Assembly (NCBI GenBank): GCA_973895155.1
Contig: OZ316895.1
Location: forward strand, 11,430,858 to 11,494,857
DNA: 64,000 nt
Source of the DNA: Marsupella aquatica
Lineage: Eukaryota; Plantae; Marchantiophyta
Reading direction: 5' to 3'
A model generated the notes under the pieces. It did no database searches and was not told where the DNA came from. It saw nothing but the letters and a program-made list of their open reading frames with translations. A program made the translations under genes and the position numbers. This document shows, one piece after another, positions 20,106 through 45,425 of this stretch (positions are counted from its first letter, which is position 1; every line of letters begins with the position of its first letter).

Positions 20106-20612
20106 TCATTGAAGCCATGCCTCTGCCTCAGAATGGGACCTAAAAGACTTGTGACTAGCTCCATTGAATCCGCTCACCTGACATTCTGCCTCCTCCCAAG
20201 TACAATATATCCGAGGACTGCGCCCCCTAGCAATGGCATACCATTTTTTCTTTGAGGTAGAGCCTAGATCACAATTGTATGGAAGAGCAATTGACTTAGA
20301 GCGAGAGGAGAAAGTATGTGATTGTAATTTCACCCTTGTGGCAGGCTGAGTTTGCGCAATGTCAACCAATTGTGCTTGTGAGGCTGACAAAGATGGACCT
20401 GCATTAGCACCCTGGCGCCGAGCCGATACAGGTTTTGGTGGCCCAACAACAGGCACTATAGGGGAATCGTGACCCTCTGATTTTGATGGCGTTGTACTTT
20501 GAGCAAGGGGAGGCAGCCCATCTCGATTCCACACTGAAGACAAACACAAAATCCGTTCAACATGTGATGGAGGAAGAAGAGTAGTGCACTCAAACCTGCA
20601 AATACGGTCCAT
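20106..20612 (-). CDS. MULE-borne protein ending in an RNase H1 N-terminal hybrid-binding / caulimovirus viroplasmin-like domain (true start uncertain, possibly spliced)
   Basis: C-terminal KKKWYAIARGRSPRIYCTWEEAECQVSGFNGASHKSFRSHSEAEAWLQ matches the YAV..GR.PG(I/V)Y.TW..C..QV.GF.GA..K.F....EA..F/W pattern. Confidence 0.8.
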   Translation of the reverse strand: MDRICRFECTTLLPPSHVERILCLSSVWNRDGLPPLAQSTTPSKSEGHDSPIVPVVGPPKPVSARRQGANAGPSLSASQAQLVDIAQTQPATRVKLQSHTFSSRSKSIALPYNCDLGSTSKKKWYAIARGRSPRIYCTWEEAECQVSGFNGASHKSFRSHSEAEAWLQ

Positions 20613-23296: not shown

Positions 23297-23478
23297 ATGG
23301 CAAAGTCCGATGTTAGGAGAATGGGAAAGTCCGATGCTGGGAGTATGGGAAAGTCCGATTCTAGAAGAATGGGAAAGTCCGATGCTGGAAGAATGGGAAA
23401 GTCCGATGCTGGGAGTATGGGAAAGTCCGATGCTAGAAGAATGGGAAAGTCCGATGCTGGGAGTATGGGAAAGTCTGG
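23297..23478 (+). repeat. 24-bp tandem repeat (ATGGGAAAGTCCGATGCTRGRAGW), ~7.5 copies
   Basis: Directly visible in the sequence; mirrored at 24325-24505. Confidence 0.93.
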
Positions 23479-24324
23479 TTATGACAAAAAGAAATTTTTT
23501 GATTGTGTTAGAATGAAAAGTTTTGATGTGTTAGATGGGGTATGTGGTTGCACCGACATACTCTTCCCAAAAGATGCAATCATTCTTGCATGCATGAATA
23601 ACTTCATACTTGAGGCAAATGGACTTGAGTGTTGTTTTTGCCTCATTCCAAGACCCAACATATTTTTCCCTTACGGAAATATGTGCTCAACATGCCAAGT
23701 CCAAAATACATCATCTAGAAGGAGGTTGCTTGTCCCATGTAGTCTTTGTTGCAAGTCCAACAACAACATAGTTGATAAAAGATGAGACAATCAGGAGCCA
23801 TTGACGCTGAGGCTTTGGAAGGACCAAAATATCATCCATAACTAATAAGCCATAATTATCCCATATCAAATCTAATGAAGGAGGGCTTTACTATCGATGA
23901 ATGACCCCTGCCAGATTTCTATTGGTTTCTCCTAAGGGAATGTAATAGGGTAACTAGAATAGGTCACTTGATGCAAAGATCTAATCTCATGATAGAGAAA
24001 AATGGATCAAGAATGGGTCCAAATTATGGGTCTTAGTAAACTCACAAGTGTATAAAATCCCCAAACACTCTAAGTCAAACAACAAAAGTGCTAAGCTTGC
24101 ATGTACAATGTAAGGAATAAGAACCACAAAGTTAAGCTCATGTTGGAGGAATAGCAATTGGGATGGGTGACCAATTAGTTGAGAAAATTTGAAGAGTTCA
24201 CATGTCAAGGGAGATGGGCACCTAGCTCATAGTTCCAAATGAAAGTAGAAACCCAATTAAAGGAAGAGATGGGTGACCTGAGCATGTCGCGTCCGCTGAA
24301 ATGCATATCCCATTTTGATTGCTT

Positions 24325-24505
24325 CGGACTTTCCCATTCTCCTAGCATCGGACTTTCCCATTCTCTCACCATCGGACTTTCCCATTCTCCTAGCATCGGA
24401 CTTTCCCATTCTCTCACCATCGGACTTTCCCATTCTCCTAGCATCGGACTTTCCCATTCTCCCACCATCGGACTTTCCCATTCTCCCACCATCGGACTTT
24501 CCGAT
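24325..24505 (-). repeat. 24-bp tandem repeat, inverted counterpart of 23297-23478, ~7.5 copies
   Basis: CATCGGACTTTCCCATTCTC units. Confidence 0.93.
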
Positions 24506-25564
24506 AGAAGTCCGATTGTCGATATCTGATACTATTAAAATGGCATGTTGCGATGCTAGTAGTATCGGATATATGGTTTTTCAAATTTTATTTTACAAAG
24601 GCGTCCGATGTGGAGAGAATCGGAAAAAGGAGGTAAAATGTACTAGTGATAACTCACAACGGCAAGTAGACCTTTATGTCGGTCTGATATGAGTGGCATG
24701 TGAGGCGATTCAATGCCGTACAGTGATCTATCTACCAACACTAGTAGAAACCGGGGGGTATTTAGACCCCATTAAACGACTATTCAGTACCGTATAGGAC
24801 TTGGAAACGACTGGGAAGGACTCTAGTCCTTTATAGGACTGCGAGTCGTATGTTTTGTTACTATAATCAACTGAGTCCTTTATAGAACTGGTTTATAAGT
24901 CGTTTAATAGACTGGATTTTCAGTCTATTTTAGTCTTTGTGTGGGTAGCTTTGGTGAGTCGTTTTCAGTCTTTTATGGGCTGCGATGATGAGTCGTTGGG
25001 AACGACTAAAAAGGTTATGGAGGGTAGTCTTTAAATATACTTTGTGGGGTATGTATAAGTCTTTCATGTCAACTGGATATGAGTGATGAAGACCCCACTA
25101 TACTACTTGGAATGAACCCACTCTTGTGCACAAATAACATATTGCATTCATGTTTTATTGTGTACTTGGAATGAACTCACTCTATAAGTTCACCATTCAT
25201 CATGTTAACATTAGAATACATAGTTTCAGAAAGCCATCTTCTATACCATGTACACTAATATGAATTCACAGATTCAAACTTCATAGACTACAAAGAAGGT
25301 CACAAAGTATTCCTCTATACCATACACACTAATACTGAAATGATAAAATAGATTCAAGTATCATAGACAATCACCATAGAGCCATAGTTTGACATCAATC
25401 ACTTGTTTCATACATACAGAATTCAGAAATATCAATGTCACACACAACGTCTCCTTCATCCTCTTTACCAAATGGAAAAATTGGTACAGATATTTCTTGG
25501 ATCTTTCCAAGGCAATGTCAAAATGTGACACAATTCACATGATTCTATCTACACTTGCATTCAG

Positions 25565-28500
25565 TCACTGCAGACTAACACACTCTGATGGCCAGAGCAC
25601 AAGAGATCCTACTGCATCTGCAATTATTTCTTGAGGTGGATCATCGTCTCTATTCGGAAATGGCAAATTACAATCAGATACAATCACTGTAGTCAACAAC
25701 ACTACTACATGGTCATCCGGGACCACTTTGCCATGGAATTTTGCATGATCCGGTCGCAAAATGCCTGTACCCACACATACCTGCGAGTCATCCTCCCATG
25801 ATAGAAGATTATGGACTGGCTCTGCTGTGGCTATCACCTTCACCTTACCCTGGTTGTTTTTCTTGGCTTTCCTGGGTGGCTTATACATGACATTATTCAT
25901 ACCTTGGTTGCGAGTCATGACTTTGGCACGAGTGTTTTGTGCTGGTGATCGAGAATTGGCTACACTCTTCTTCAAAGAATCTGCATCCATATTTGACACT
26001 TCTGATTGTGTAGCAGGATTTCCCTGCGACATCATCTCAGTATCTGCCAACATTGTACTTGCTTCAATTGAAGCATCTACAATCTTACTTGCATCCAATG
26101 TTGCTCCCAAGTTTCGACGTCGCTTCACCCTACTCCCACTTGGTTGAGAGTCTGTCAACTCTGCATCAACTACAATTCAGTGTCATGTCCAACATAAGTC
26201 AATCACTCATCACATGTGCTAAATGTACATGTCACCAACCACAAAGTTGTCACTATCTCCTTACCATTATGAACAGCCTTCTTCCCCTTCTTTGCCATTG
26301 CCATATGCTTCATGTCTGCTTCTGTTGATCAATAAACACACCACAATATTCAGGTTGAATCTATTAACCACTGAATTGTTGCTCAACATTCATATAGAGG
26401 AATTTAAAGCATCAGCTTACCTGATACCTCCTTGGCTATGGTCACTGAGGCACTGGGCACATCTTCTTCATTATTGCTCTTTGAATCACCTGATACATCA
26501 ATCATGATGTCACTTCAGATCCCAGTTCATCCAACCAATTCTTACAGAAAAGATGACCTCTAACCGGCTTAAGCTTCACAAAACTCCATGCACTTTTCAA
26601 ATGTAATGTACTGGATCATAGCAGGTTACCTGTCTCAGCAACCTTCTTGCCCTTCTGCTTACTGATTACAGGGTCCTTCTCTGCCTCCACTCTTCCTGCA
26701 TTCAAACCATTCACTCAATTCATGAAAACTTACTTCTAACATTTGAACATAGGACACAATAAACAATGGGCCGGTGTCATTTCCATACATGTGTCAGATT
26801 TGCCAATTCCCTTTTTTGTTAACAAGGGCACACTTTGTACAATGTTGCCCTCATTGTTTGGTTGGGAACCACCCAATTTTTCAATCACAAGCTTGAAATT
26901 AGATTCCACTGATGCAAGAAGGTTCGCTACAGATGCCTCCACAATATCCAAACGATCAGCCAATTTACTTTCCACTCGAGGGAGTCCACACTCTAATGAC
27001 TTCAACCGTTCACACATCTCTGTGAGAGTTGTAACAGTTCCCTGTCATAACACAGCTTACATATCTCAGATAACTGTCCCCAAGAATTGGTTGCTTACTT
27101 CCTACTACATTTCTTTCTGATGCTCAAGGCCAAATAGTCACAAAACATACAGAATTACAACATAATCACCTGTTTGGAAGTCACACTTGTCACCTCACTC
27201 CTTTGTTTCATGAACTCCTCTCTCACTTCTTGTGCTGATGGTTCTTCACCTGTCAATTTCTTCTGCAGTCCACATCAACATACATATGAATGAAACCAAG
27301 TGTTGATTGTCAATGAAAATGTAATAATGGTAGCAAGATGATAAGTTTGAGGCTTACTATCAGGCATGTCACTGCCTTACCAATTGTTCTTTCACTGGAG
27401 CATAACTTCCTCTCCCAGCCTATGAAAGGTGTTTCACTTTGCCTCGAGCATTTGACATCAGTTCACTCTTGCTCTGTCCAGCCTCCGACATGAACCCTTT
27501 GATTAACCGTGTCCATTGATCCAGTTCCAATGATGGGGGTGGTGGCATTCTCCTGTTAGAACCATTGTCTATCCACATCCTTTTCAACATATGCCTCTCT
27601 TGTTTCAAAATCCTCATTGCATAATCTGATATGCAATCTTCAACTGGGCCCTTACCATCATTACCAACATAGTCCCACCGTTCAAGAATGTCCTTGCAGA
27701 TAGCAGCCCAATCAGCTTTGTTCTGACTCCTAAACTCTGTAATGCTCAAATCTAACCAACGCAATACTTCTCCTCTTAGGTCAGAATGCCAACGGTTCTT
27801 ACCATCATATGTGGGAGTTATCCAACCTTCGGAATTCACTTCTACTTTACCAAATTTGTTATTGTCTCCTGCCTTGGTACTCCCTGAAGCGCTACTAGGT
27901 GTCCCTCCACGGCCTGGATTGCATTGTCCAAACCTCCCTGGAGTCCCTGCACATTTACAGGATCCATTTACAGTCACTTACATTAGGTAAGTATGAATCA
28001 TAAATCCTGCTGCCAAATATACACTAGACTTCAGAGCAATTCTGCAATGACCAAGTTACCTCTCCCTTGGCGCATAGATGGTTCTGGACCACCTGTCCTA
28101 TTGCTTTGTCTTGATGAATTAGGGCCGTTTCTCCCGCCTGTGAATGATTGCCGCCTATCTGAACGTGGATGGCCTTTGTTGTTTTCGTGATTGTCCCAAT
28201 CAGAGTCTGCATACCAACAGGTACATGCCACACTCATGGACCTATAAAATAAACTCTTTGCCCTAGCTACACATCAGATAAGTCCATATTGAGCTAAATC
28301 TCTACTACCATCACAAAATCACTAGCACAAGGCACTTACTTGTCCAATCATCCTCCTCACCTTTCCATTGCCCTCTGTACCCGTCTCTACCACGCTCTGG
28401 GTGTTCATATTCATCCCATCCATCTTCTACTCCATCATAGTCATCATCATAATTATCAGGCGTCCCTTGCCAATAACTCTGGCTCATTCTAGGGTATGGA

Positions 28501-28682
28501 TTATGTGATTTCTCTCTAGCTGCCCACCTACCTGGGACTTGATGAGGGCCCTGTGCATCCTGCATAGGTGCATTTTTCTGTGAGCCCCCTGCATCTGGGT
28601 CTCCATCCATATCCAATCTTTCCTCTTCACCCCACTCTCCAAGCCCCATGTCTGTCTCCATGTCATCACCCTCTTCCCCCAT
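25565..28682 (-). pseudogene. TnpA-like (Ptta/Tnp1 En/Spm) multi-exon gene
   Basis: RHMLKRMW..PPPSLELDQWTRLI..W/F..QSKSELMSNARGKVKH*AGRG (Ptta-like), followed by a coiled coil. The C-terminal FHGKVVPDDHVVV..LPFP..IADAVGSLVLWP is Tnp1-like. Premature stop at 27420. Confidence 0.8.
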
Positions 28683-28859
28683 AGCTTCTGCATAGCACCC
28701 ACAACCAAACACGGAGAATCAACACACTAAATTCAAAGTATCAATCAATTTCATGCATATCCAACTATCCTAAACATCATTCCAGGCAGCAATTCCCGTT
28801 CTGTGACTCTGTGCAGGTAGTCATCCTCAACCTCATACTTGCCAATCGCCAGCTGTTGC

Positions 28860-31800
28860 CTATTGCAAATCATCAACCTCATCATATTCCATTTGCCCAG
28901 GTTCATCATATGTCTCTCTCAATGTTAAGGGGATGTAGTCAGTCCCTGCCCGAGTTGGAAGTACAGTCTCATGACTAGGATGCTCGAATGCAGCATGGTC
29001 ATCCAAACTGAACTCTACTTTACTTCCATCCATCCACCTATTCCGTGCTTGGCTATGGCATACCACCCTCCAGCCATGTGACTCCTCCACATCTGCAAAG
29101 AAAGCCTGTTCAACTTGGCTAGGGAAAACAAAAGGCTCAGATCATTCTGGTACTCTGGACCTAAAATTGGCCAACAAGAACCCATCATGATCACGCTTCA
29201 TGGTGGCCCTTGGTCTCTGCCACTCTGATTTCATCCATGATCCCTTCATCAATATCACTGGGACACTTGTGTTACCATAATTCAACACCCAAATGTCGGT
29301 CAACTCCCCCACGTAACCCATCTTCATCCACCCCCTCTGTTCTTCAGAGGTTCTCTGCTCAAACACAGAAATCAAACCACAATCATATGATACACAATGG
29401 TCACCCTGCTCATCCCTCACTCGATAATGATTTCCATAAGCTCTCATCCATTTGTAGGTCAGAATAGACAATCATGGTGGCACAGATAGAAGATACAAAT
29501 CCTTCTCCATATCTGGGTGATGTCTACTATGCTCTCGAATTGTCACCCGAATCCACTGCTCGAACTGTGGGAAGGGATCCTGCTGCCCAGAGTGTGCAAC
29601 TTTTTGCATATCATATCCCTGCAATATGAGGTACAGGCATAGTTAGGTCTAAACAACACATGACAACCTAAGATCACCCTTGGAACAGACAAGAAGCATC
29701 ACAATAAAGGCAAGTCAATTCAATCACTCACCTCCACCATGGTTGCATAGGCTCTGTGTTTGCCAGCACATATGAATGAGCCTTGTCTCGAATCGCAACA
29801 GGCAGCTGAACAGCACGTCCCACACCTTCAACAACCTCGCCACTCACTCCATCATCTTCACCAGATTTCCAAACTCTTGTCATAGCTTCACCAGACCCAG
29901 CCATGTACTCTGTTAGGAATCCCAATGTCTCATCCTTAATGTACCCCAATGCCATGGAAGCCTCTGGCCTGTAGTATGTTCTCACATGACCTTTCAACAA
30001 CTTCATGTATCGCTCCATAGGGTACATCCATCTGGTACTGACTGGCCCATACTGCCCTAGCTCTTCTACCACATGGATTAGGAGATGAGTCATAACATCA
30101 AAGAAAGCAGGGGGGAAGTATATCTCCAAGTCACAGAGGACATAAGCAGCATCCTGCTTCAACTGCTCCAATCCTTGGGGATCCCACACTTTCACACATA
30201 TACGGCGAAATACATTGCACAGTCGAAGAATGACATTACGGACTGGTTTCTGCATGAGACCTCTGAGGCATAGGGGCAGAATGTGCTGCATCAACACATG
30301 GTAGTCATGTGTTTTCATACTGCCAAGTTTATTCTTTGTAATATGCTTCTTGAAGGCACCAGCATAGCCAGAGGGCACTTTCAGACAGCTCAATCTATAC
30401 AAGAATGTCTTCCATTCATCCTGTGTGCACACATAGGGAGCTTGGAACTTGAGAAGTACATTGGGATTGCTTGCATGGGGCTTCAACCAAAGGTGAGGGC
30501 GAATCCCCTTCTGTTGCATATCAGCTCGAACTGCTCTTGTATCTTTCTCACCCGACAAGAACTTCAGCAAGCTCTCACAAATATTTTTCTCAATGTGCAT
30601 GACGTCCACATTGTGTTTGCTGGGCTTGAATTCCTGCACTCCACAAAGCAAAGAATTCAACAACAGAAACACTAATTAACCGCATAGGAGGATTGTAACC
30701 AACATCAATCCACCATTGCTCCAATCTAAAATTGCAATCATACAGGGGCTGGAGGCTAAGTACATTACCCTCCAGTACTCCAACTCCAAGTCCATCAAGG
30801 TCTGTCTTTTCACACCGTGTTTCACCACTGGATCCTCAGGTTCTCGATCAGTGGCACTTCTCTTGTCCTAATCAACCTTCCTGGCTGCCCACCTCAGGAC
30901 TTGCTCTCTGGTGACCCTCTGTGGTGGGCCACGAAGCTCTGTTTTGTTGTTGAAGTGTGCAATTTGAGACCGTGTGTGCCTGTAAGGATGATCAACAAGC
31001 AGATACCTTCTATGCCCCTGAAATTTCATACTGTGCAGGGCATGCGACCACTCACTTGTCACATTTTTCCCACATGGTGTGCACCCCACATAGCCCTTTG
31101 TCACTCGTCCAGATATGATGCCATGGCCTGGGTAATCTGCTATATCCAGCAAACAAATTGCATGCAGTCTAAAGGGGCTGGGTCGAAGAAGCCCCTTCAG
31201 AACATCATGGGTTAACACCCCTTCTATCCACAAAGTCTTCCACTCTTCCACTGCTGGAGCCAACATGATATCTATGAATTGCTCGGTCACAGAAGCTGGT
31301 CCAGGGATTAACAGCACCATCATGACAAAAAACCTCTTTGTAGTCATCCATGGGGGAAGGTTGTAATTTAGCAGCGTAACCGGCCAACATGAATAACGGT
31401 TGTTTTTGTCTCCAAATGGGTTTACTCCATCCAGTGATAGACCAAATCGAAAGTTCCGCTTCTCTGCAGCAAACTGTGGCCACCTCTCATCAACAAATTT
31501 CCAATGGTTGGAATCTCCAATGTGACGCTGCAGGCCATCACTGCTCTTGTTATCAGGAGTCCATGTCATCAGCTTGGAAATGGCAGGGCATCTAAACAGA
31601 CGTTGTAGTCTAGGAATGAGAGGAAAATGACGAAGAACCTTGGCAGGGTGTGTACATTTCCCTACATTCTTGTACCTGTGCTTACCACAATGAGGGCATA
31701 TCAATTTATCTGCATGCTCTTTGCGAAAGAGAACACACCCATCAGGGCATGCGTCAATAGACACATAGTTCAGCCCAAGGTTAGACATCAATTTCCTAGC

Positions 31801-32559
31801 CTCATACATATTTTTTGGAATTGAATTACCATCTGGTAACACATTTCGGCGCAGGAAGGTCAACAACTCTGTCACAAATATATTGGGAACATTGTGATTG
31901 CCACAGATGTTCAACAACAACACGACAAAACCCAGCTTGGAGCAGTTCGACCCCTCGTAGATAGGAATGCAAGCTTCTTTGATGTGTTTTGGGCCCCCAA
32001 ACACCCACTCCCTCTCTGTTGCACCTTCCCCAATGTCAAAGTCAGGTTCAGCTTGGCCGTCGCCAATGTGTGGCTGCGGTTCATTGTCCTCTTTTGATTC
32101 CACTGTGTCGTAAAAAGCATCAAGGTCTTCAAAAATCTCTTGAACCATTCTTGGGACATCCATCCCACCGTCCTCAGTGACTGCCTCTGCATCTCCATGT
32201 TGGTCATCCATGTTCTCATGTTGGACCCCAGGACCATCCTCTGCACAGTCTATGTCCTGCTCTACGTAGTCTCTACGCCTAGCTGTATTAGAATCCACAA
32301 AGTCAGCTCTCCACTCTTCATCAGAGGAGTCTTCTTCTGCTGGTACATTCCAAACCCTCCACCGAGGGTGCCTTTCATGCCGCAGCAGGTGAAGGTGCAC
32401 AGTGTTCAAACTCAACGACTTGAATCCTTGGCACTGTGTGCATGGGCATCTCATCCTCCTACTCCTACCTTGGGCGGCCCGGGCTTGTTCACGCATCCAC
32501 AATTTAGAATCATGATGCCTAATCCTAAATGGGTTGTGAAGAGGCAACCTTGGAGCCAT
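28860..32559 (-). pseudogene. TnpD-like CACTA transposase (Tnp2 core plus DUF4218/DUF4216-like regions)
   Basis: CPCTQC..HL..H, IDACPDGCVLFR..CPHCG..RY, LRHFPLIPRLQRLF, LSLDGVNPFG, YNLPPW, DYPG, DVMHIEKN, MKTHDYHVLMQ, RWMYPMERYM, EPFVFPSQVEQ. Intron 30634-30768. In-frame stops at 30868 and 29142. Confidence 0.95.
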
Positions 32560-32885
32560 CACTATACACACGCACTCAGCACCCTGTCATTTTATTATGC
32601 AAGTGAAAAATACACTTCCTGTTAAGGATTTCACCCCCGACTGTACTTGCCAAAATACGTAACGTTCCAAAAAAACAAAAAAACAAAAAATATAGGTGCC
32701 TGAGTCATGTACCTATTCTCAAGTGAATGAGACAAAATTCCTAAATGTTTGAGGGTGTCAACTCCTCCGCTGTCCTCACATGTACTGCCTCTGCACGTAC
32801 ATCCATGACCATATCAGAGTCCAATCATGTATAGTCATAGACACAGGTGCCAGGTGCGAGACCGGTGTGAGATGTCCTCATCTTA

Positions 32886-33293
32886 CTACCACATCAAATA
32901 CGGATACCAATCCTGTTGTCGATGCCACTCAGCCCTGAGGTACTCAGGCATGTACATTAAGTCATCAAGGTCTAAACCCTGCTCATGCCATGGTGGTCTT
33001 CGATCCGTGCCTACAAGCAGTGGCAGCAGTGCCCTCCATGGTGCACATGTTGCTACCAAGTCCCTCCACTGGGTACTAATTAGTCTATATTTGCAGATAT
33101 CTTGTGCGCCAGACACCACAAGAACCCTCAGCCAGACATGTGTAAGAACTATATCATCTGCCAAATCAGGCAACAAGGAACCACCTACAGCATCGTGCTT
33201 GTCTAACTCATCTGCTGAAAAGTAAATGTCCTCTTCCGACTGTGCATCCTCATTCACCACAGCATTCACAACACATCCAAGGTCTGTAGGCAT
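32886..33293 (-). CDS. CACTA cargo ORF with F-box-like motif
   Basis: LLPDLADDIVLTHVWLRV....CKYRLISTQWRDLV resembles the LP.LPddi...IL.RL....R.VS..WR.L F-box consensus. Confidence 0.62.
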   Translation of the reverse strand: MPTDLGCVVNAVVNEDAQSEEDIYFSADELDKHDAVGGSLLPDLADDIVLTHVWLRVLVVSGAQDICKYRLISTQWRDLVATCAPWRALLPLLVGTDRRPPWHEQGLDLDDLMYMPEYLRAEWHRQQDWYPYLMW

Positions 33294-33886
33294 TATCTCG
33301 CATGGAAGCTGCCTCTTCTAGACCGTCTGCACTTAGTCTCCCCAATTCCTTCTTCTGCAAATACCACACTGAACCCCTTCATAATGGTATTTCTCTCCTT
33401 GTCATGCTCATTCAATATAGCATCTGCACGCATAGGATGGTGTCCTATGTTGACAACAGGTCCATATTGGACAGAAGCAAAGTTGGGTTTCTCTGCCGCT
33501 GCTTCATAGGCTTTCTTTTCAGCCAAAGCCTCTGCAGTGGCCTCCTCACTCTCCCACAACTCATATTGCTCAGTACTCTGTACACACCTATGTTTAACAG
33601 AATCGATCAGCCAAGAGACTTCAACTACTTTTAGACCTTGGTTGGTAATGGCAGAATCAATGAAGGACCATGACCACTTGTTCATCACATCCAGCCATGT
33701 CCCCGCAACAACATGTGTAGTCTGTGGAGTGATGTCCTTGACTTCAGTCCCATGGAACTCTGAGAATCGTTTTTGTACGATTGGCCAACTCACTTGGGTG
33801 AACCCATAGTGGCCAGGAATCAAAATGGCTTTGATTCCAGCCAACAGAGGCGGGTGGTCAACCTTTGTACGTTTCCTAGAGGCCAT
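33293..33886 (-). CDS. CACTA cargo ORF with a single BRCT domain (DNA polymerase lambda/Pol X N-terminal type) and an N-terminal NLS-like segment
   Basis: MASRKRTK..LLAGIKAILI..IVQKRFSEFHG....TTHVVA....VVEVSWLIDSVK....TEQYEL shows the THV and W..DS BRCT signatures. Confidence 0.8.
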   Translation of the reverse strand: MASRKRTKVDHPPLLAGIKAILIPGHYGFTQVSWPIVQKRFSEFHGTEVKDITPQTTHVVAGTWLDVMNKWSWSFIDSAITNQGLKVVEVSWLIDSVKHRCVQSTEQYELWESEEATAEALAEKKAYEAAAEKPNFASVQYGPVVNIGHHPMRADAILNEHDKERNTIMKGFSVVFAEEGIGETKCRRSRRGSFHAR

Positions 33887-34484
33887 GTACACACGGGCCA
33901 CCTAATCACTGCAGACCGAAAGATAATGCGTTCACCTGATAATCGAAGGGCCCTTAAAATGCTGCGTTTATAACTTGGTCCAGTCCAGTCGTCTGGTGAG
34001 TCTCTGCTTCGATTCCAAACGGGAGAAATATTGGGACAAACGTACTAGACACCTGCAAGCATGCACCTCATAGTTTGAATATGTGCCTTCACAATATTGA
34101 AGGTGACAAGTGCAATTGTTTTGTGATGCCACATACAGATGTTGTAATTGGGCAGACATTCAATGAGAATACAAAATGTTGGTACACTTTAAGGGAATTC
34201 TCGCAAATTAAATAGCCTTGTAACTTATATGCTCATAATGAGAAGTCCTGATTTAATTTAAGCAGTGTCATGTAAGTCGTGATCAAAATGATTGCAGAGT
34301 TAAAAAAGTTCCTAGAAGGCTTAAGGGGAGTTTTTGAAGGCATGTACCCAGGAACAAGTAATGAACTTAGGGTACTTGTTGCCTAAGCATCCTCTCCTAC
34401 AGAGGTCCTTCTTCTCAAAATTGGAATGTCTGCAATCTCCAAGGTATCCACATCAGGTGCACTATGCATGTACATTATTCAGGT

Positions 34485-35161
34485 TCAAAGCCAAGAAATG
34501 TGATCTCTCATGGGAGTGTGCAAAGTAGGATCTATGGCATGGCGATGACAATAGAAGATCCATCGATCAACACCATGTGCAGAGTGATCATAGATGTGTC
34601 TGTCACAAGCATAGCCTTCTGCTTGACGCTCCTTCAAACAATGAAAGTGCCACATGGTGGGACACCTAACATAGTGGACTATGTCCACCCAGAAATCTTC
34701 ATCGTGCTGACCACATGCCTTGCACTTATGAAGTGGGCAAGCTGTGGCAAGATCGGGCAAACATGAAAAACAAAAGAACCTCACACAATATCTGTCAGGG
34801 CATTTCCTAGTGGTGGAGCATCAACAGAGCCCTCATAAGACCCCAACTTCCCACACTGTGCACACTTAGCCTGCTTCTCCAAACAATCAGTGCACATCCA
34901 GCCTCCCTGGTGTGCTGACGGGAGGCCCACTCCTGGACAGTTGTTTTCTGCAGCAAGGTCAGACTCCGGGTTGAGGTGGAAATGCCTCATGCAAGGGCCC
35001 TCACATATGGCTAAGCCACCACCATCGTCACAAATGGCACAACAATGAGTTGCCTTCTGGAAAATCTGACTTGCGGAGAAGTTACTACCATCTGGCCCAA
35101 CTACACCTGTGTTGCTCACCTCTGTCCCCCGCTTCTTGGCTCGGATTTTAGGGCGTGCCAT
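34485..35161 (-). pseudogene. Stand-alone EDM2-like (NSD-type) triple PHD finger protein, ~225 aa, with one frameshift near 34812
   Basis: CAICDDGGGLAICEGPCMRHFH..C..WMCTDC; CAQCGKLGS..[fs]KCPDRYCVRFFCFSC; CPLHKCKAC..RCPTMWHFHCL; tail IFYCHRHAIDPTLHTPMRDHI, similar to the EDM2 IYC..HEID..L.TP.RDH motif. Confidence 0.82.
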
Positions 35162-35830
35162 GCCTACGCATGAGACAGATAGTACAATTTAGCAGAGTGC
35201 ACAGACAATACAATTTAGTGCAATGTACAAAAAGTACAGTGTAGCATATAGACTAGAGTGGCAATTGCTACTGCAATGAAATGTTCACACACATGTGCAG
35301 AGTAGACATACTTTTTGGTTTGTTGAGCCCACACTAAAAACTGATCCCCTCGTATAATAGCTCCACCTACACCTCAATTTTGTGGCTATGATTCACCAAA
35401 GGAGATCTGCAACAAGATTTAATGCATTTGAATCACATATAACAGTCGTGACATGTAAAATAGGCATTTTTTGAACAGGATTGGTATCAAGCAGTGTGAT
35501 CAGGGTTGTAATTTATACATCCTAAATAGGCTATGATAGTGAATGAGACAAATAAGTTAGGCATAAATCACTTTTTCCAGGTTATCACATGGCCCATTAA
35601 TTCCAGTCTTTGAAAGGAGACTTTTAAGTGAGCTTGCTAGCCTCTTAAATTAGGATATTGTACTTAGTGCAGCCATAATAGGATAAGTTATGTACTGTTG
35701 ACCCTAAACCCTGGACCCAAAATTGGTCATAATTCAAAATCTTAAGTAAATATCCTCTCTGTTCAAGTCAAAGTGTTAAGTTATAGGTCAATGGTCTCTG
35801 GTTTGTGCATGCGGTGTGACAAATGGTCCT

Positions 35831-36280
35831 CTAGAGTGTGTGATCCAAACATGTGTAGACACCAAAGTGACCGGTGGTGGGGTCTGGGAGGGCAGGACAA
35901 GTGACATCGCCAGGCACACTGCAGGATGGCGAGTGGTTCCAGATGATACATTGTGCTCTGTGAAAAAACCGACATCCAAGAGAACGGTCATCCAACTCTA
36001 GGCCAGAAGCTCTACAGGCAGGACAGTCATATTGGCAACTGTGCACACACCCTTGGGCCCTAATTTGTGGCGGGTCATGTACAAGAGACAGAAATACCAA
36101 GGATGTTGGGAAGGGTGGAGAAGCAGGTACAGGCCGGCTGTAGTTGTTCCTGGCAACAACTGGGTACTCAAAGTACCATGCAGACTGGGCTGGAAGGATC
36201 CCAAGTCTGACATACTCAAGGTGCAACATCTCTGCCTTGCGTGCAAGCCGCACATGTTCAGCGTTGCGGGTCCTCACCAT
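35831..36280 (-). CDS. CACTA cargo ORF, Cys/His-rich, unknown function (149 aa)
   Basis: ATG start (MVRTR), uninterrupted, co-oriented with the other cargo. CxHxCxxxCxxC cluster. Confidence 0.45.
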   Translation of the reverse strand: MVRTRNAEHVRLARKAEMLHLEYVRLGILPAQSAWYFEYPVVARNNYSRPVPASPPFPTSLVFLSLVHDPPQIRAQGCVHSCQYDCPACRASGLELDDRSLGCRFFHRAQCIIWNHSPSCSVPGDVTCPALPDPTTGHFGVYTCLDHTL

Positions 36281-36505
36281 AAGTGTTGCTTTTGTGGAGC
36301 AAGGTGAGCAGGAGCTGTACTTGCCTCACCAACAGCAACCAACCTTAAATTATCAGTTCCCACTCACTGTGTCATTCCATTGGTTCCAGCTAGGGGTCAC
36401 AGTGTAAACATAGCATGAAACACTCCTAATCAACTTGCTTACAAACTACAATATCCAGAAAGAGTGAAAGTCTCACCCTCCAGTGAGCAGCAGAGAGGTA
36501 GTTCA

Positions 36506-37036
36506 CTAGATGTGTTGATGTGCAGTTAAACCTCCACTATTGCTTACTTCTGGTGTATGCTGCTCAGAAGAAGACATATTAGTAGCAGCAAATTGCAAAT
36601 AATGGCCATAAGCAAACCGTGAGAGTTTGCAGAATGCTACGACAAATCCATCACAGCAGTGCTCCACAGGAATGAAACCAAGCAAAATTTGGTGACCTCG
36701 GCCAATGACAAGGCCAATGTAGTGAACAATCCTTGACCGATCAGGATATGGATTGGAATTACAATTAGTCAGCTCTTCTTCTTTGTTTTCTAACTCTGGG
36801 GGAAATGAGCATGACCAGGGAATTCTCTGAGAAATAGAAGTGCACAGGGAAAATGAAATTGGCTCATTCAGCTGCGCAAGACCGACCATTGCAGCATACT
36901 TGGACAGTTGTTCCGCAATACATAAAATACCCTGACTTACATGCAATCGATACAATCTGCTTCTGTTGGCTGTCCTACAGCTCATGGCAGTGCCGTTGGG
37001 ATAGGGTAAGTGAATATTGCCATAGCTGAAGCACAT
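36506..37036 (-). CDS. CACTA cargo ORF, unknown function (176 aa)
   Basis: Long ATG-initiated ORF, co-oriented with the other cargo. No motif recognised. Confidence 0.3.
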   Translation of the reverse strand: MCFSYGNIHLPYPNGTAMSCRTANRSRLYRLHVSQGILCIAEQLSKYAAMVGLAQLNEPISFSLCTSISQRIPWSCSFPPELENKEEELTNCNSNPYPDRSRIVHYIGLVIGRGHQILLGFIPVEHCCDGFVVAFCKLSRFAYGHYLQFAATNMSSSEQHTPEVSNSGGLTAHQHI

Positions 37037-40000
37037 TGAGCTTGCAGCAAGAAGTGAAGGAGCATGGCCAAAAGCAGAAAAGACAGACAGGTTTTACAAG
37101 AAGAAACTAACAACCGCCAATCTGCTCAAATCCGCTGCATAGATCAAACCCTCCAAACTACACAGCCCTCCTTTGAAAACAATCCAATGTGCTTTGGCTG
37201 GTGGATGACAAGGACTGGGAGAAGAGGAAACGTCTGCACAATCAATCCAAATGACGGGACACAGAGACCAGGCACAGAGAGGATTTGTGCTTAGACAAAA
37301 ACCACAAATTGTAGCATGGGTGCCATAGCATTCTAGACAAAGCACAAAACATAGAATCTATGAATCTATGACTCATGGACTAACAAAATGATTGGGTAGC
37401 ATGGCAAAAGGAAAGACAAATTAATTTCAAAATGACAACATGGCCCATTTCCGCCATTCATTTGACGTTGCTAGGTGTCCGTAAGATGACTGACCCACAG
37501 ACAATCCCGACAACCTCATCTGACAGACTGCTTTTCTAGTGTGAAGAAATACATGATTACAAGCAACACCACGCCTCATCCAAGCAGGGAATTGAAAACA
37601 TAACCATGTCATTCCTGTATTGGACAGTGTCCTCTGCCATTGCACTGCATAGTTGTTATTCCATGTTGGTTGTCAACAGTTTGTTGGCTTGCCACAGCCT
37701 AGATAGAACAATACAATACTGTACATGAATACAACAAGAAAAATCTGCATACAGCGATGGCCCGGTCACTTGAGGAAAAAACAAAACTAAGAAGGCAGGC
37801 ACACGGGCAACCGAGAAAAAAAGCTAGTGGCGCCTCGCGGAGAATCCAGAATGGTAATGCCCTTGCCCAGAAGCTTGGGAAACAAAAGAGAAAAAAGCAA
37901 AAACGAGCTACCGACCACCATCTTGACCAGGCCCGCCACAAGGTATGGCTGGAGGCTGTGGTCCCCCCCTTAGTAAAGAAAAGGATGCAAGTCGGTGCAC
38001 GGGGCACAAGGCATGTTCGGATCCAGGGAGGAGCACAACAGTAATGTCAAGCAAGAAGTGTGGAGAGACCAAACAGTAAACAAAAATAGGGGAGAACAAA
38101 CATACATCAGCAGCAGCAGGAAACGAGAAAGTTGATTTGGGAGGGATTGTAGGGAGAGAGATTTTGGTGGGCTCGGCTACGCGTGAAATATCAGGAGATA
38201 GATGCGCGAGAGAGTGAAGAGGGTGGCAAGCGGAAGACAGGTTGGGACTGGACCCTTGGTGCCGGGGAGTAATATATGGGGTAATATACGTAGAGACAAA
38301 GCTGTACTCACTTGATTGAGTAGGCAAGTGGGTGGACGAAGATCAACAACCGCAGTAGCAGCACAGCCAGAGAGGCAAGAAAGGGGAAATTTCAGCAAAG
38401 GTAAGCGACACAGACAACTCACCCTCCGTCTCACCCTCCCAGCTCCAAAGTTGCAAGAGCAAGAAGTCAAAGGCACTGAAACAAAGCGGGTGGCAGTTTC
38501 AGTATCTCAGGCAATGCAAAATTAATCCATACTTAATCAGCCCTGGCCACACATTCCTTCAAAGCCCCTCATACTAGCAAGCAGGTCTGGCCTATGAATC
38601 TTGTAGTGCTTAACGATACAAAGCCTTCCCAAGTACCAATTCAAAAGTAGCAGAAATAGATTGAAAGCTAGTTCCGATGATAGCTCCCAAAAGCTTTCCT
38701 CAGCCCGATTCCTATGCACATCAGAGGAGCTCAAACCATTTAGAAATGAGATCACAGGTTACTCTTGACAATCTCAAAAATGCCACAACCTAAGCATTGA
38801 CAACTCCGTCCCCCCATTCTAATTTCTCCGACAAGTTTGCCTTAAAGCACATCCACTCGCAGTTCAAGCAGATTCAGAATCATCATAGACAATAGAGTGT
38901 TCCACCATAGCCCACGGTAGGTCCACAGCCATCGTAACGAACGCTCCGCCCCCGGGGCTTATTAGTATTGCTCACTTTTAAGAAGGGCAGTTTTCGCAAA
39001 AGCAGTCTAATTGCCTAGACTGCACTAGAAAAGTTGGAGGCAATATCACATCGGAGCATTCTGCGTCTAAGGGCCAGCGACGCCGTTCAGGAGATAGATG
39101 CGCGAGAGAGTGAAGATGGTGGGGAGCGGAAGACGGGTTGGGACTGGACCCTTGGTGCCGGTGGGTAATATGTGGGGTTTCAATGAACAATGGGCCAGTT
39201 TGAGGAGGATTAAGAAGCGCGCACCCCACGGTCTTGTGTGGTGGTTGGGTGGGGTTTTGTTTGATAGAAGAAGAAATCACCATTCTCTTATGGAAGAAAG
39301 AAAATCGCAGGAAACAATGGGCAGGAGAACAAGGCATGTAATAGAGAACAACGAGGCATGTAATAGAGTACTTGCGGTTACTCTAACGGTGCACGAACAC
39401 TCACCTTTGTCTTCCGCTTTGTCTGCTGTGGCCAACAAATCCTAGAGCGCTGCCAAGCTTGGTGGTTGCTTGATGGTTGAAAGTGTGCAGCTCACGTCCC
39501 TACCTCAATGTCCAACTCAATGTGGGATGCTGCAGCTTCTCTTGGTCGCATCTCCTCTTGGTTGCATCTCCTCCTTGTCGCAGCTCCTCTTGGGGTTCAC
39601 AGCTAGCGCACAGCTAGCGCGCAGCAGCGCTCGATGGTTGACAATGCGCAGCTGAGCTAGGAGAAGAACTGAATGACTGTGGCTGCTCTTCTCTGCAGTC
39701 CAAGCACCCGGCTGGCAGAATGCTACGACACCTGAAAGAAGCACACTTTCAGCTGCATGGCCAGGACTAACCTTTGGCTGATGACACTGATAACCAATGG
39801 CAGCACTGTCAATTGCTTCCTCCTAACAAACAACCGGCTCCCGATTCTGCAACTGCTCTTTAAGCTCCACGACCTCCTTCACAACTCCAATGTCCACCTT
39901 CCGCAGTGGTTGCCTTCCACAGCGCCTTCACAACTCCAATGTCCACCTTCTGCAGCAGCAAACGATTGCCGCCCTGCTCACGCCTCCTTTGAATGCCTCG

Positions 40001-43000
40001 GCAACCTTGAGGACACACTACAATTAAACTTCCGCAACAATCGCCTCACCTTACGATAGACCTTGGCACCACAACACCTTCCCAGATCACAGCTGCTCCC
40101 CTCAGCTAAACCCTCAGCGCCTCAGTCCCCAGATCACAGCTCCTCCCGAACTGCAACTCACTCAAAACCTAAGCACTCAGGAGTGCCCTCAACAATGAAC
40201 AATGGGGCAACTCAGACCGGAAGCAAAGAGCCCTGCGACTGTAAAAGCCTTGGAACAGTACGCAGCCGCGCAAAACCTCAACATTTGACAGGCATTGGAT
40301 GCTCTACCCTAACCAACACTCACTAAACCAAGACTTAGTGTGGCCGTCTCCTCAGCAGCTCGCGATCCGTAGACACTGATTGTAGCTCGGCAGAGGACAA
40401 CCGAGGGTCAAGTTCGTAAGAATCCCCCGTTTCCCTCGCAAAACCCTTTGCAAAACCCCGATCCTCCCACCCCGTCTCCCTAAACTGTGCGACCCTAAAC
40501 TCCCTCTGGCTGTTGTGTTAGTGCCCCTACAGAGAGAATGAGGGGACCCTATGCCAAAATGTGGGCAAAAGGATTGACCGTTGGGGTGAGCCGTTGAGTG
40601 GGGCGAGGCGTTAAGTGTGACCCCAAAAATTCATTTAGGCAAAATGAATTGTGGTAAATTGTGACCTGTTTTGAGAGTTGAAAGATAATCAGAAGTAAAG
40701 GGACCATGGAGAAGACGGGGCCAATGTAATTAAGTCAAGCATCACTCATTCAAAATCCACATGGACATAGTTGGGTACTATATGAGACACCAGGGGACAA
40801 GACATTTTTGAAGGGTTGGCATATTTACCCTCATCCCTAAACTTGGATGTGGTGCACATAACATCCACTCTCCTACCCCAAGTACAAAACAACTCCTAAC
40901 AACTTAGGCCCAATGTAGTCACTTGTGCCCAACCATGTTCATTAAGAGCCTAAATGTTTTCATTTCACCCACATTGCATGTTGTTGGGGGTTCCATGGTC
41001 TGTTATTATAATGTAACTCCTCATGTGAACTTTGTGAAATTTAGTATTTAAGGGACCATGGAGAAAGCGGGCCAATGGAGTAATTGGAACCATGAACCTT
41101 TTTGGTCACAAATAAGGCCATCTAATGAGTTATGCCCCTTGCTATCACCATCTTTATAGAATTAACCCTCTTCAACATAAGTGAACATTACCCATGTAGT
41201 GCTAGACTATTCATCGTTCACAAAGTAGCAAGGACCCTTCTCATAGTCTTTTAGAGAACCATATAACACTAATAGTCGTTTGTAGTCTTCAACAAAACCG
41301 GCACAATGGGAGCGAGTCGTTTCAAGTATGGAAAAAGGACTTAGTGGGCTTAGTCCTATAAGGTATGGTCTAAATGGCCCCGGTTTCTACTAGTGCAATT
41401 TCAAAAACCAGATCCAATTATCTGTGTTCTCAACTGGAGCTACTGCGTAACATAGAATCAATCTTTGGCCATTTCCATCCAAACATGTAGCTAAGAATAG
41501 TTGAGTGGGGTACTTCCTGTTCTTTGTATGACATGCATCAAGAGAGATGAGAGGTTGAATGTAGGTACATGCTTTTTGTGTAGCTGATGGGCAAATGAAA
41601 GCTCGACAGAAAATGTTGGAGTTTTCCATTGGGGACCAGACTGCCACTGCACCAGAGTCAGTCTTTCTCACCTTGGCAATTAATGCCGGAATCATTTGAA
41701 ACGTGTCTTCCTACCCACCAAGGTGCAGATCCCGTACATAGTCTTTTGCTCGCCACATTTGGTGGTAAGTGCTGTTCTTTTTATAATCCCCTTGAAATCC
41801 GCAGAGTAGTTCTTTGACCGGCACCTTCAGATTTCTACACACTCTAGGCGCCAGTGTGTCTCCTAATCACACTGCCTTTTGTGTTGGGCCCCTCCACTTG
41901 TGTTTAGATGTTGGACAATTGTGTTTCAGCTCACACACAGTAATGATATGAGCCCCACTGTGAGCTTGCCTGTGACATCGGACCCTGAATGGGCAGTAGG
42001 CTGAACAATCAAAACCATCTTCATCGTACTCTGGTGGGGGCCTAAACCTAGAAAACTCCCCGCATACTCTTGTGGTAGAAATCTTCCTGACTTTTACCGT
42101 GCCAGGGGCATGTGACCCAGGTAGCCACACACTGCTATGCTGCACTACTGTGCGTGGTTTCTTTGCCATTGTTGTGTTCCTCTAGAGATAGTTTGGATCC
42201 AGAGGTCCAAGGGGTGCACGAACCTCCTATTGCAATCCACATAGAACATATTCATGTTATTGTATATGGAAACACAGAAGACAGTGGTGTCATTGTATAC
42301 AAAATACACACCACAATGGGGATGTTTATATGAAACATAGAAGACACTCATGACGTCGTATACAAAACATTGATGGTAAAATGCAAAGAAGACATTCTGG
42401 TTGAGGTATACCTGTGGAGCATTTGTGAGAACGATTGCTCCAAACTGGTTTGTTGATCCTGCCATCTGTTGAATAGCAATTTGAAACTCACAGTCTTCCA
42501 TCTGCAATGGCAGCACAAACATGCCATGCATCAAAACATAGAGTGACAAGTATTACATTTCTAACCCTTCAAAAAAACCACAATGATATAGGTATGGACT
42601 CTTGAAAAGCTTTACCTCTTCCGCTGTCAATAATGGTTCTGCATAGGCATTGTGTGACCTTTGTCTACCCCTTGGTTCGGATGTCATTCCTCTGTCACGG
42701 AACCCACTATACTCACCGTAACGACTGTTATAGTGCCAATCTAATTCATGTTCATCTTCATCATCCAATTCATGGATATACAGTGAATTTTTATCTTCTG
42801 AACTATCACTACATTCAGAACTGTCTGGCCCAGGTCTGATGTCACCACTTGACTTCCTTTCATATCAATGAGCAATCTTACTAAATCGGCAAACCCTTGT
42901 TCAAAAATTGGGGGCGGTTTTAAGTCTATACACTACTCGGCCATGCATCACAGCCCATGAGGCCAAACATCTATCAAATTCATCAAAATTGCTAAAACGC

Positions 43001-43798
43001 TTGCCCAAATGAATGCGGGCCGCCTCTGCTTCCACTACAAAGAGCATTGTAGAATACATAATGAAGAACGTCTACTGGTGCAACAACTTCAACAGTGCAA
43101 AACTTATGATTCATACGGGAGCAACTTCAACTTCATACTTAAGCCAAACAAATCCTCCAATTTATACTAACTTGAAGCACAATAGATTCACCTTCTTCGG
43201 GACTCTTCCCATCCAGGATTGATTTCAGATTTTTCAGATGTCTTTGTGTTGTTCCCCGCCTTGCTCTTTGTGGTGATTGCCTATCAGAATCGGGAATGTC
43301 CACCTCACAAACATCCCCTTGACGCCAAAGATTGATGTCACTTACATCATCTGCCATGATCATGTATTTCAATTTGCATATGAGTACTGTACAGAGGTTA
43401 GTCATGTCCATTTAACGTAAAGCTCAAAAACATTTACTAAGCCACATGCAAAAGGGCTCTGCAGCCCATGAATTGACGTCGTTTCTTGACATTGTTTGTG
43501 CCTCCAGTTTACACATTCTAACATCTGCACAGTAGTACCTTGTTTTCCTGTGCAATCGATGGTGGCAGGTGCGTGCGCCGTGCGCCTCGTGTAAAGTTGA
43601 GTGTACTTGTTATCGGGCATGGACAAAAGTCGGGATGGGAGGATATTAAAAAATGCGGAGATCAGTTTAGAAATAGAATACAATCATGTCAATGTATTCG
43701 CATTCGTGTAACATAACCCTAATGTTGATCGTGGCGGCATGGATGGGCAAATGCCCAATTTTGACTTCTAATTACGAGGTCCCGTTGCCTGATTACTG

Positions 43799-44174
43799 CG
43801 CGCTTAACCCTAAACCGCCCTGACAATGTGCGCCTCGACAATGTGCGCCCCGACAATGTGTGCCCTAAAACAGAAATTTTGTTGAAGACATAAACCACGA
43901 TGTATTCACGCTCATAAGGGACCATAGTGCGAGGGGGGAAAAACTGCGTAGTTGCGGCCCGACTGCAGCGGAGTCGCGTGGTCGACTGCGGGAGGCGACC
44001 TTGCGTGGTGGCATGGCTCCCAACTGTGCAGTAATGCCTTTACACGGGGGAAACTGCCTTACACGAGAGCAAAGGGTACGGGCCATAATGAGGGGGCTGA
44101 TTGAGGCAAAAAAGTTTGGAGGGGGCTGATCAAGTAAAGTTTCTCCTGGAGGGGGTCTATTGAGCATATCCCTC
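43799..44174 (-). repeat. MULE right TIR
   Basis: Reverse complement of 13672-14019. It has three copies of a ~15-bp CACATTGTCGGGGCG unit where the left TIR has one. Confidence 0.93.
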
Positions 44175-45425
44175 TAAGTGCCAAGTGCCCAAAACACAAA
44201 AGGAAACCTTGATCTGTATTTAACATACAAATTTAATTAAAATATGAACAGTAACTAAACGCTGTGACTGGTTCACTATAACGAGATGGACACGTATGTT
44301 CATCCGGGCCCTTAAATAAGAAGGCAAAAACACGCACTGGATTGTCAGAGAATCTTTGGCCGACTCTGATCCCCGACATTCCTCTCGTTGCAGAGTCGCC
44401 GATCGACGATCCTACATGAATCCATGGCCAGGATCGACCGCTTTAGTCTCAATCGGAAAGTGACCCTGTACGGGAAATCGCTCACCTGAGGCGGTTAACG
44501 ACTGAGTAAAGTCGCGAAAACTCCCGCGCTTCGGGAAAGATCACTCCACGACTGTGCGCTTGACATGCGTCGTCGATATGTCCAATCGACAGCTCTCGCA
44601 GACCTGGTGGGCACAATGATGTTACCAAATGGCCCTTCTCCAGTTCTCCTCGTCCCATGGGTTAACTATAATAAATCCCGATTTTCCGAGCCGAACAGCT
44701 GATCTTGAGTTCCATAATCATGATACGACGACGCCGGACTGACATTTAGGGTGATAACGTGATAACCTTGTTCCTTGGGTGTAAGCTTAGCCTCCGAATT
44801 CGGTAAGTTTAGGGTTTAGGTAAGTTCAATGTTACTCCATGACAAAGTGGCGGCTGGTTTGCTAGACTCTGTTAATGTGGTGGTGTAATAATATCTGGGA
44901 TGAGTAAATTACCACAGTATTTGTGGATGTCAATAATAGGTGACTTACTATAATCCAAAGGACACAGAGGGCTTGAGTTGATGGTTTTAGCGACTATGGC
45001 CATATTTCTCTGAGTGATCCTCCTCTGCTAGTTTACTCATCAGCTTCACCAGGCTTTCAGCTTATGCTGAGTATGGCTTTAGTTCCTTAGATATTGTGAG
45101 GGATTCTCGGTTTTGGCTCTTTGGTTGTCTTGAGGTTTCTCTTTTGTTTTTTCTCATCATTGGTTGGATCCTGTCTCCTGGTTTCACATTTAATTTTCTT
45201 TGGCAGTGATGTATGTATTGCATGATCTCAAAAAATCAAACTCTGACTTGTTATTACACCAGGCTATGTTGTAACACTAAGCTATCAGATACATCTTAGC
45301 TTAATCTACACACCTTACTATGTAAACCTGATCATTCTAACTGGTAGCCTGTTTACAAATTTCCATCTGGGCACAAAGGAATTCTGGCCATTTGTTGAAA
45401 AATGGTTTTTCATCACTAGTCAATT

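Follow-up and report, generated by a model that had tools for sequence, protein, structure and literature searches.

A decayed CACTA (En/Spm) transposon in the liverwort Marsupella aquatica carries, ahead of its transposase gene, a small gene whose product resembles the triple PHD-finger module of EDM2 and belongs to a family in which many members begin like histone H3. The element lies on the minus strand of a 64,000-nt stretch of contig OZ316895.1, which we call the window and number from its first letter (Table 1). Judged from its sequence, the PHD cargo corresponds to the EDM2 module alone, with none of the other parts of that protein. An earlier note on this DNA had described seven open reading frames (ORFs) as a virus-like unit, with one non-coding leader spliced to an acceptor just before most of their start codons. 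That leader-focused reading missed the most telling fact, the EDM2-type fingers and H3-like start of the PHD cargo, and the interest of the element is carried more by this cargo than by the leader model.

We read the element as holding three conserved accessory genes (ORF149, the PHD gene and a tandem-BRCT gene) ahead of the transposase and a likely TnpA partner. Their starts would lie behind introns in the 5′ untranslated regions (5′ UTRs), and one promoter region would serve them through alternative splicing and polyadenylation. Taken as a whole, we hold this reading tentatively, at a little short of an even chance.

Results

The stretch is contained in five public runs (X1 to X5) from three organisms and three studies, which have no sense-strand intron joints among the rows listed and which we treated as DNA. 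Comparisons are mostly over four of these runs, read depth is not copy number, and variant counts are among the variants listed. The PHD gene of the window copy is frameshifted by the loss of 4 nt near 34808, where all runs have four extra bases; the PHD ORF of the earlier note is this broken frame, and the gene really runs to 34485. Two relatives, P0001 (226 aa) and P0002 (220 aa), have 83% and 77% identity to the PHD tail and, between first Met and stop, align co-linearly with the two halves of the window gene. A profile search with this pair gave 252 proteins at E<=0.001, beginning with short stand-alone proteins and continuing with many of ~1200-1300 aa that match at residues ~220-430. Ten of these long matches were looked up: two are named EDM2, one sits in the cluster of Arabidopsis EDM2, and the other seven are hypothetical or unnamed plant or algal PHD proteins. 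The best-scoring named long relatives are liverwort proteins.

The cargo shares with EDM2 three PHD-type fingers in the same NSD-like order (PHD-1st_NSD, PHD_NSD, PHDvar_NSD; all three below the Pfam cut-off) and the same terminal T-P-x-x-x-H motif. Across three stand-alone proteins, two liverwort proteins and Arabidopsis EDM2, 34 columns are invariant, most of them Cys or His. The stand-alone proteins are nevertheless not EDM2 orthologues. They are 220-245 aa long, lack the RFD-like N-terminal domain and the methyltransferase-like C-terminal region of EDM2, and, unlike EDM2, the cargo has no introns and is borne by a transposon. The acidic patch before the first finger has given way to neutral or basic residues, with a median charge of +1 in stand-alone proteins vs -6 in long EDM2-like proteins. 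In a quick tree of 136 of the 153 rows (17 were dropped for short or over-long PHD spans), which does not name the donor, the ten stand-alone rows form one long, separate branch with a Shimodaira-Hasegawa-like approximate likelihood ratio test value of 100.

The H3-like start also sets the cargo apart from EDM2. Many stand-alone PHD proteins start M-A-R-x-K-x-x-A-K-K, and the only match in the PDB of a profile of six hand-picked N-termini was histone H3 1-10 (E=1.4). Without picking, the motif beats composition shuffles (p<0.05) in 8 of 17 family members, with a median score of 19, and it does so in 8 of 65 long EDM2-like proteins (65 of 93 were scorable), with a median of 5. The match starts right after the Met in 7/17 members. 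Gene-caller extensions before the Met in P0008 (V-G), P0006 (E-G) and P0129 (V-A) fit an AG placed 2 nt before the ATG, as in the window; those of P0007, P0011 and P0076 do not. A structure model of the PHD module in complex with its 29-residue tail, built without an alignment, scored 0.02 and gives no verdict.

Several points weigh against making much of the H3 likeness. The motif is absent from P0002, P0006 and P0071 and internal in one subfamily, and it is short and basic and may be a mere nuclear localisation signal. The 17 family members are related to each other, so they are not independent in these counts. Distant stand-alone relatives are known without genomic context and may not be transposon-borne.

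The other two accessory genes have intact relatives of their own. ORF149 is 54% and 53% identical to P0004 and P0005, which share its MVRTR start, a start that resembles those of CENH3 or H3-type histones; the match of this type of start to H3 1-9 is weak. Five of nine listed variants in ORF149 are synonymous, in a small and biased sample. Read depth peaks over the PHD gene and ORF149, above their spacers, in 4/4 runs. ORF149 had no match in the PDB, P0004 had none in the structure atlas, and the structure model is of low confidence (predicted local distance difference test score 43.6). The tandem-BRCT gene is 59% identical to P0003, a 294-aa protein with the same start and a second BRCT domain. 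At 33325 the loose ends of variants run in frame into a second BRCT domain when read by hand, so this domain was lost here through an internal deletion near 33325/33306.

Downstream, the ORF with an F-box-like motif probably encodes the C-terminus of the BRCT protein where copies are intact, although it may instead be a separate gene. Its frame is open upstream over 10 visible codons in three variants (loose ends, again read by hand), and its acidic start resembles the acidic end of P0003; for these two reasons a BRCT-gene tail is the likelier identity. The F-box itself is absent from P0003. The ATG of this ORF is probably not a start, and the stop-start (TAATG) overlap at 33293 is no sign of coupled translation, because it follows the deletion in the window copy. 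That four of the ORFs share one frame is likewise accidental, owing to insertions and deletions in this copy.

ORF37036, for which no homologue search was made, was rejected as a gene. Its acceptor scores -3.2 bits, Pfam gave no match, no depth peak stands over it, and it holds gaps: a 1-nt gap at 36882 in one contig, and a gapped contig in X5. A 378-nt contig from one of the three organisms (organism C) equals the non-coding-looking stretch 36424-36801 with 0 differences, where the other listed pieces of that organism differ by ~1-20%; a conserved RNA or splicing element around the donor at 36547 is possible.

The transposase gene, tnpD, matches Transposase_21 (E 6.6e-59), DUF4218 (E 2.1e-27) and Transpos_assoc (E 5.5e-4) in Pfam, which did not detect DUF4216. 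Stops interrupt its frame near 30868 and near 29142, and the frame seems to shift close to intron 2. Behind it lies a second core gene with two in-frame stops and no Pfam match, which from its position is likely the TnpA partner; we presume a likeness to Transposase_24/23 motifs. The stretch 25565-26053, listed as an ORF in the earlier note, is the last exon of this gene and not a gene of its own. TnpA-like proteins are stated to be restricted to flowering plants in PMC13547354 and 10.64898/2026.08.24.746577. A TnpA-like gene at 25565-28682, so called by position, in a non-flowering host would contradict this restriction.

The element itself is a member of the CACTA/En-Spm superfamily. It has 18-bp perfect terminal inverted repeats (TIRs) beginning CACTAGTAG and TTG on either side as a 3-bp target-site duplication (TSD). 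AACGACT and AAAGACT words recur near the two ends, in 2+6 and 1+4 copies counted without a chance control, and are candidate subterminal repeats. Hundreds to thousands of contig variants map to this stretch, so the element forms a multi-copy family in the three organisms. The window copy is decayed, broken in PHD, BRCT, tnpD and tnpA; these breaks are private to it or to part of the family, and at sites where it differs from all runs it has A/T where the family has G/C. The coding parts are more widely shared than the spacers in 4/4 runs. Scans of metagenomes found no relative, and Rfam gave 0 matches.

Table 1. Positions of the element, its genes and predicted splice features, and the transposons around it
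Feature	Positions	Strand	Remarks
Complete CACTA (En/Spm) element	24739..41395	-	16,657 nt; TIRs, TSD, candidate subterminal repeats; decayed copy
5′ non-coding region	37750..40650	-	likely promoter/leader region; variable between family members
Sense GTGAGT sites	40323, 40161, 39404, 38422, 38311	-	
Family-shared block	38078..38282	-	92-nt pyrimidine-rich repeat; ATG-free candidate leader exon; GTATGT donor 38105
ORF37036 (176 aa)	36506..37036	-	probably no gene; more likely 5′ UTR exon/intron; holds donors 36940, 36547
ORF149	35831..36315	-	ATG 36280, acceptor 36315; MVRTR start; Cys/His-rich C-half
Predicted non-coding exon	35406-35312	-	acceptor 35407, donor 35311
Predicted 148-nt intron before PHD	ends at acceptor 35164	-	2 nt before PHD ATG
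Stand-alone, intron-less EDM2-type triple-PHD gene	34485..35161	-	~226 aa; H3(1-9)-like start
Tandem-BRCT gene	33293..34053	-	ATG 33886; acceptors 33909, 34053; 166 ATG-free nt from 34053
Acidic stretch and F-box-like motif	32886..33293	-	Pfam F-box E 0.05-0.08, below cut-off
TnpD transposase	28860..32584	-	ATG 32559, acceptor 32584; introns 30768-30634, 29731-29619
Second core gene, TnpA-like by position	25565..28688	-	ATG 28682, acceptor 28688; 9 exons, one frame
Enclosing Mutator-like element (MULE)	13671..44175	-	331-nt TIRs, 97%, at 13671-14001 and 43845-44175
Non-autonomous element, CACTAGTA ends	22966-24648		TSD TAT; two inverted arrays of 24-nt unit

The acceptors that had suggested a shared leader are in the sequence at the distances reported: GCAG 5 nt from the ATG of tnpA, ACAG 24 nt from that of tnpD, GCAG 22 nt for BRCT, GTAG 2 nt for PHD (no other AG occurs within 90 nt upstream), ACAG 34 nt for ORF36280 (ORF149) and CAAG 4 nt for ORF37036. 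We scored them with splice matrices built from the 22 annotated introns of the window (10 in the CACTA element, 3 in a kinase gene and 9 in an acyltransferase gene); the reading frame continues across each splice junction apart from that of TnpD intron 2. Left out one at a time, the training acceptors score -0.7 to 13.8 bits, and 10% of the 1181 sense AGs in the element score >=5.6 bits. The best acceptor within 35 nt upstream scores 11.1 bits for tnpA, 9.9 for ORF36280, 7.4 for tnpD, 6.2 for BRCT, 6.0 for F-box and 4.7 for PHD.

Combined, the seven ORFs exceed other ATGs with p of 0.033, 0.012, 0.003 and 0.015 for upstream spans of 10, 25, 35 and 60 nt, and exceed local shuffles with p of 0.095, 0.043 and 0.0033 for 10, 25 and 35 nt. 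For the five credible genes the shuffle values are 0.037, 0.012 and 0.0012; without tnpA they range from 0.01 to 0.34 by span, with 0.0096 at 35 nt, a span picked after the 34-nt case of ORF36280 was known. Taken jointly, the acceptors before the ATGs appear to exceed chance modestly, with tnpA alone strong by itself; the excess leans on tnpA and on a span chosen afterwards. The count of seven separate ORFs shrinks to five credible starts (ORF149, PHD, BRCT, tnpD and tnpA), ORF37036 and the F-box ORF probably not being independent genes. Of the seven, these are the two that lack a convincing acceptor, which favours the earlier model. In PHD, tnpD and tnpA the first ATG upstream of the start is in another frame and lies immediately 5′ of the acceptor, where splicing would take it out.

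In the 5′ region CpG observed/expected (o/e) is 0.58-0.63 vs 0.27-0.36 in the ORFs. The GTGAGT donors described at 40323 and 39404 are present. The sense strand holds 5 such sites in 37.7-40.5 kb vs 1.03 expected (1000 local shuffles, p=0.002), and the other strand 0. The top-scoring donors of the region are 40049, 39771 and 39404. The donor at 40323 scores 2.3 bits, beneath all 22 training donors (2.5-11.8), and we rejected it as a likely leader donor. An exon ending at the GTATGT donor 38105 (4.7 bits) is a better candidate than the leader at 40.3-40.5 kb named in the earlier note. It lies in a family-shared block with a clear depth peak over 38078-38278 in 3/4 runs, in two of the four runs the sequence is swapped exactly at 38105/38196 (one contig each), and its pyrimidine-rich repeat recurs at 39087-39178.

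The surroundings were also annotated. The CACTA element interrupts the transposase frame of the MULE, which is broken a second time by the CACTA-ended non-autonomous element, inserted in the same gene 87 nt away. The MULE has extra ORFs of its own at 20106-20612, with an RNase H1 N-terminal (Cauli_VI) domain (E 2.8e-17), 15150-15761 and 18757-19110. Outside it lie the acyltransferase gene at 1-3650 (+), with 9 annotated introns, which we take to be malonyl-CoA:ACP transacylase-like from its translation, and the gene at 48839-53081 (+) for a kinase with SH3_15 repeats. A 1.3-kb inverted-repeat element at 11775-13072 has arms of 243 and 107 nt (96-98%) and related pieces near 45.7 and 62.6 kb.

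Discussion

A single spliced leader for all genes of the element is plausible from the arrangement of its putative splice sites, and between one transcription unit and separate promoters we lean slightly towards one unit. What counts against one unit is considerable. Local donors precede four genes (36547 before ORF149, 7.5 bits; 35311 before PHD, 7.0; 32779 before tnpD, 6.2; 34375 before BRCT, 5.6), so each could have its own promoter, and since most acceptors have such a donor nearby, the two arrangements are indistinguishable from DNA. Without tnpA the shuffle test for the remaining ORFs is weak and depends on the span (p 0.53, 0.23 and 0.022 for 10, 25 and 35 nt), and the acceptor matrix rests on 22 introns, with ATGCAG-like ends belonging to its consensus. 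CpG is partly kept in the spacers before BRCT and tnpD (o/e 0.44 and 0.57), and 40.3-40.5 kb is among the least-shared parts of the element (depth 282 in X1 vs ~2000-3300 over the tnpD/tnpA body; the drop over the 5′ region appears in 4/4 runs).

There is a sizeable minority chance that the acceptors are real and no common leader exists, each accessory gene, tnpD and tnpA having its own promoter and 5′ UTR intron. Arabidopsis EN/SPM2, 5, 6 and 9 have split genes (PMC13547354) that start separately according to cap analysis of gene expression (10.64898/2026.08.24.746577). In the window the donor-acceptor pairs of four genes stand 148-323 nt apart, the host kinase gene shows a like pattern with an acceptor-like site ~65 nt before its ATG, and both the CpG kept ahead of BRCT and tnpD and the variable 5′ region fit separate starts. 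The spacers, however, leave little room for the 3′ end of one gene and the promoter, exon and intron of the next (177 nt between tnpD and tnpA, 326 nt before tnpD), the local tnpA donor at 28838 is weak (2.0 bits), and all spacers together hold one TATA-like hit. The exon before the PHD intron has an upstream acceptor of its own, and the 5′ region (37.7-40.5 kb) holds more donors than expected. Also on the side of one unit, CpG is kept mainly at 37.8-40.6 kb, and some contigs skip ORF149 (35346/36298, 35363/36138 and 35346/36197), yet these stop before they reach the 35311 donor and the acceptor of PHD. Precedent exists for both arrangements: in maize Spm, tnpA and tnpD arise through alternative splicing (PMC2613891), and Arabidopsis En/Spm families use alternative splicing as well as separate promoters (PMC13547354).

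A different doubt concerns what the cargo does. The accessory genes may be real while the PHD protein serves as a tether to chromatin, either guiding the choice of target sites or holding TnpA/TnpD, with its basic start a plain nuclear localisation signal. We consider this less likely than not, but a close rival. Alone, the PDB match to H3 falls short of significance, 9/17 family members do not beat shuffles, BRCT relatives likewise begin with basic stretches, and the window copy is inserted inside another transposon. Yet A-R-x-K-x-x-A-K/R-K keeps the register of H3 (R2, K4, A7, basic 8/9), directly behind the Met in the seven members noted above, and the sequence between motif and first finger varies. 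Passive Pack-CACTA cargo, made of pieces captured from the host whose splice sites are remnants or accidents, is very unlikely. Fragments in Tgm-Express1 are spliced indiscriminately (PMC1947982), one AG in ten of the element scores like a true acceptor, and the window copy is broken in four genes. Against this, the element has a transposase, the cargo has diverged relatives that are intact and intron-less, begin alike and are 53-83% identical to it, the Cys/His pattern is kept on a long branch of its own, coding parts are better shared than spacers, and the breaks are private to the window copy or to part of the family. The earlier suggestion that the cargo is not passive is borne out in this respect: ORF149, tandem-BRCT and triple-PHD are separately starting, family-conserved genes.

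On our preferred reading, of three accessory genes served by one promoter region, transcription would start in the 37.8-40.6 kb region. Splicing, often by way of a small non-coding exon nearby, would join the pre-mRNA to the acceptor of one gene, whose poly(A) site would then end the transcript. Because several genes stand in a row, transcription would have to pass a number of proximal poly(A) sites in H3K9me2 chromatin before reaching tnpD and tnpA, and read-through of this kind is what host EDM2 provides. This protein binds chromatin marked by H3K9me2 and acts together with AIPP1/EDM3 and ASI1/IBM2 to suppress polyadenylation at proximal sites (PMC7529245); its PHD repeat binds histone (PMC3632883). 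Arabidopsis Spm elements activated by TnpA retain H3K9me (10.64898/2026.08.24.746577). EDM2 suppresses premature polyadenylation in such chromatin, so its pathway is likely one that the element exploits or blocks. In the simplest use, the EDM2 module of the element, without the other domains and the acidic patch and with an H3-like tail, would recruit or titrate the EDM2 pathway and readers or writers of the H3 tail, and this would favour expression of the element. The PHD cargo likely helps transcription of the element through silenced chromatin. More speculatively, a BRCT-BRCT-F-box protein might target phosphorylated proteins of the damage response for degradation by SCF where transposition leaves breaks. 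The boldest version, a virus-like late unit with one leader and a swappable accessory cassette that controls its own poly(A) read-through by an EDM2 reader with an H3 mimic and removes damage-response factors by BRCT-F-box, looks improbable to us.

There are several examples of elements that share part of this design. Like maize En/Spm and Arabidopsis EN/SPM3 and 7, the window element has CACTA ends, a Transposase_21 gene upstream of a multi-exon second gene and possibly several proteins from one unit via alternative splicing (PMC2613891, PMC13547354). Unlike them, it is twice the size and has 3-4 extra genes between the 5′ region and tnpD; its second gene has no Pfam support and the shared leader is a candidate. 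Arabidopsis EN/SPM2, 5, 6 and 9 also have head-to-tail co-oriented genes within one CACTA (PMC13547354; 10.64898/2026.08.24.746577) but hold only TnpD and TnpA (PMC13547354), whose main text does not mention PHD, BRCT or F-box. Extra domains do occur in CACTA ORF2 (PMC8978399). Anti-silencing cargo, in the form of host-derived genes of chromatin or ubiquitin type that DNA transposons retain as conserved accessories, is known from VANDAL VANC/KIU, a MULE (PMC13317346), fungal EnSpm with TET/JBP (PMC12730594) and red-algal En/Spm of 16-20 kb with 4-5 ORFs (PMC6431247); with Tgm-Express1 (PMC1947982), these set a precedent for big elements with cargo. The cargo differs in each, and the available parts of these three papers mention neither an EDM2 module nor a histone-like tail. 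Literature searches, with subscription papers and Repbase outside their scope, turned up, in the text available, neither an EDM2 module nor an H3-like tail in any CACTA, nor did they find the five-gene CACTA design, which would stand even without a shared leader.

Two parallels come from viruses. The adenovirus major late unit joins one leader to many acceptors, as was proposed for this CACTA and is a candidate here. Influenza NS1 and coronavirus ORF8 are histone mimics that, like the PHD cargo, carry a short H3-like motif on a parasite protein. Unlike them, the cargo comes from a DNA transposon, and its motif is at a free N-terminus, fused to a histone-reader module, with a predicted function.

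Known counter-silencing by plant transposons targets DNA methylation via sequence-specific binders such as VANC and TnpA. If our reading is true, an element-encoded EDM2 module would be a second counter-silencing front, RNA processing inside H3K9me2 chromatin, and the H3-like tail would make a transposon protein a histone mimic, a role seen so far mainly in viruses. The intact PHD relatives (226 aa) are small, intron-less and directly testable. The module also bears on a puzzle in the biology of Spm elements, which retain H3K9me when activated and still have to produce long spliced transcripts.

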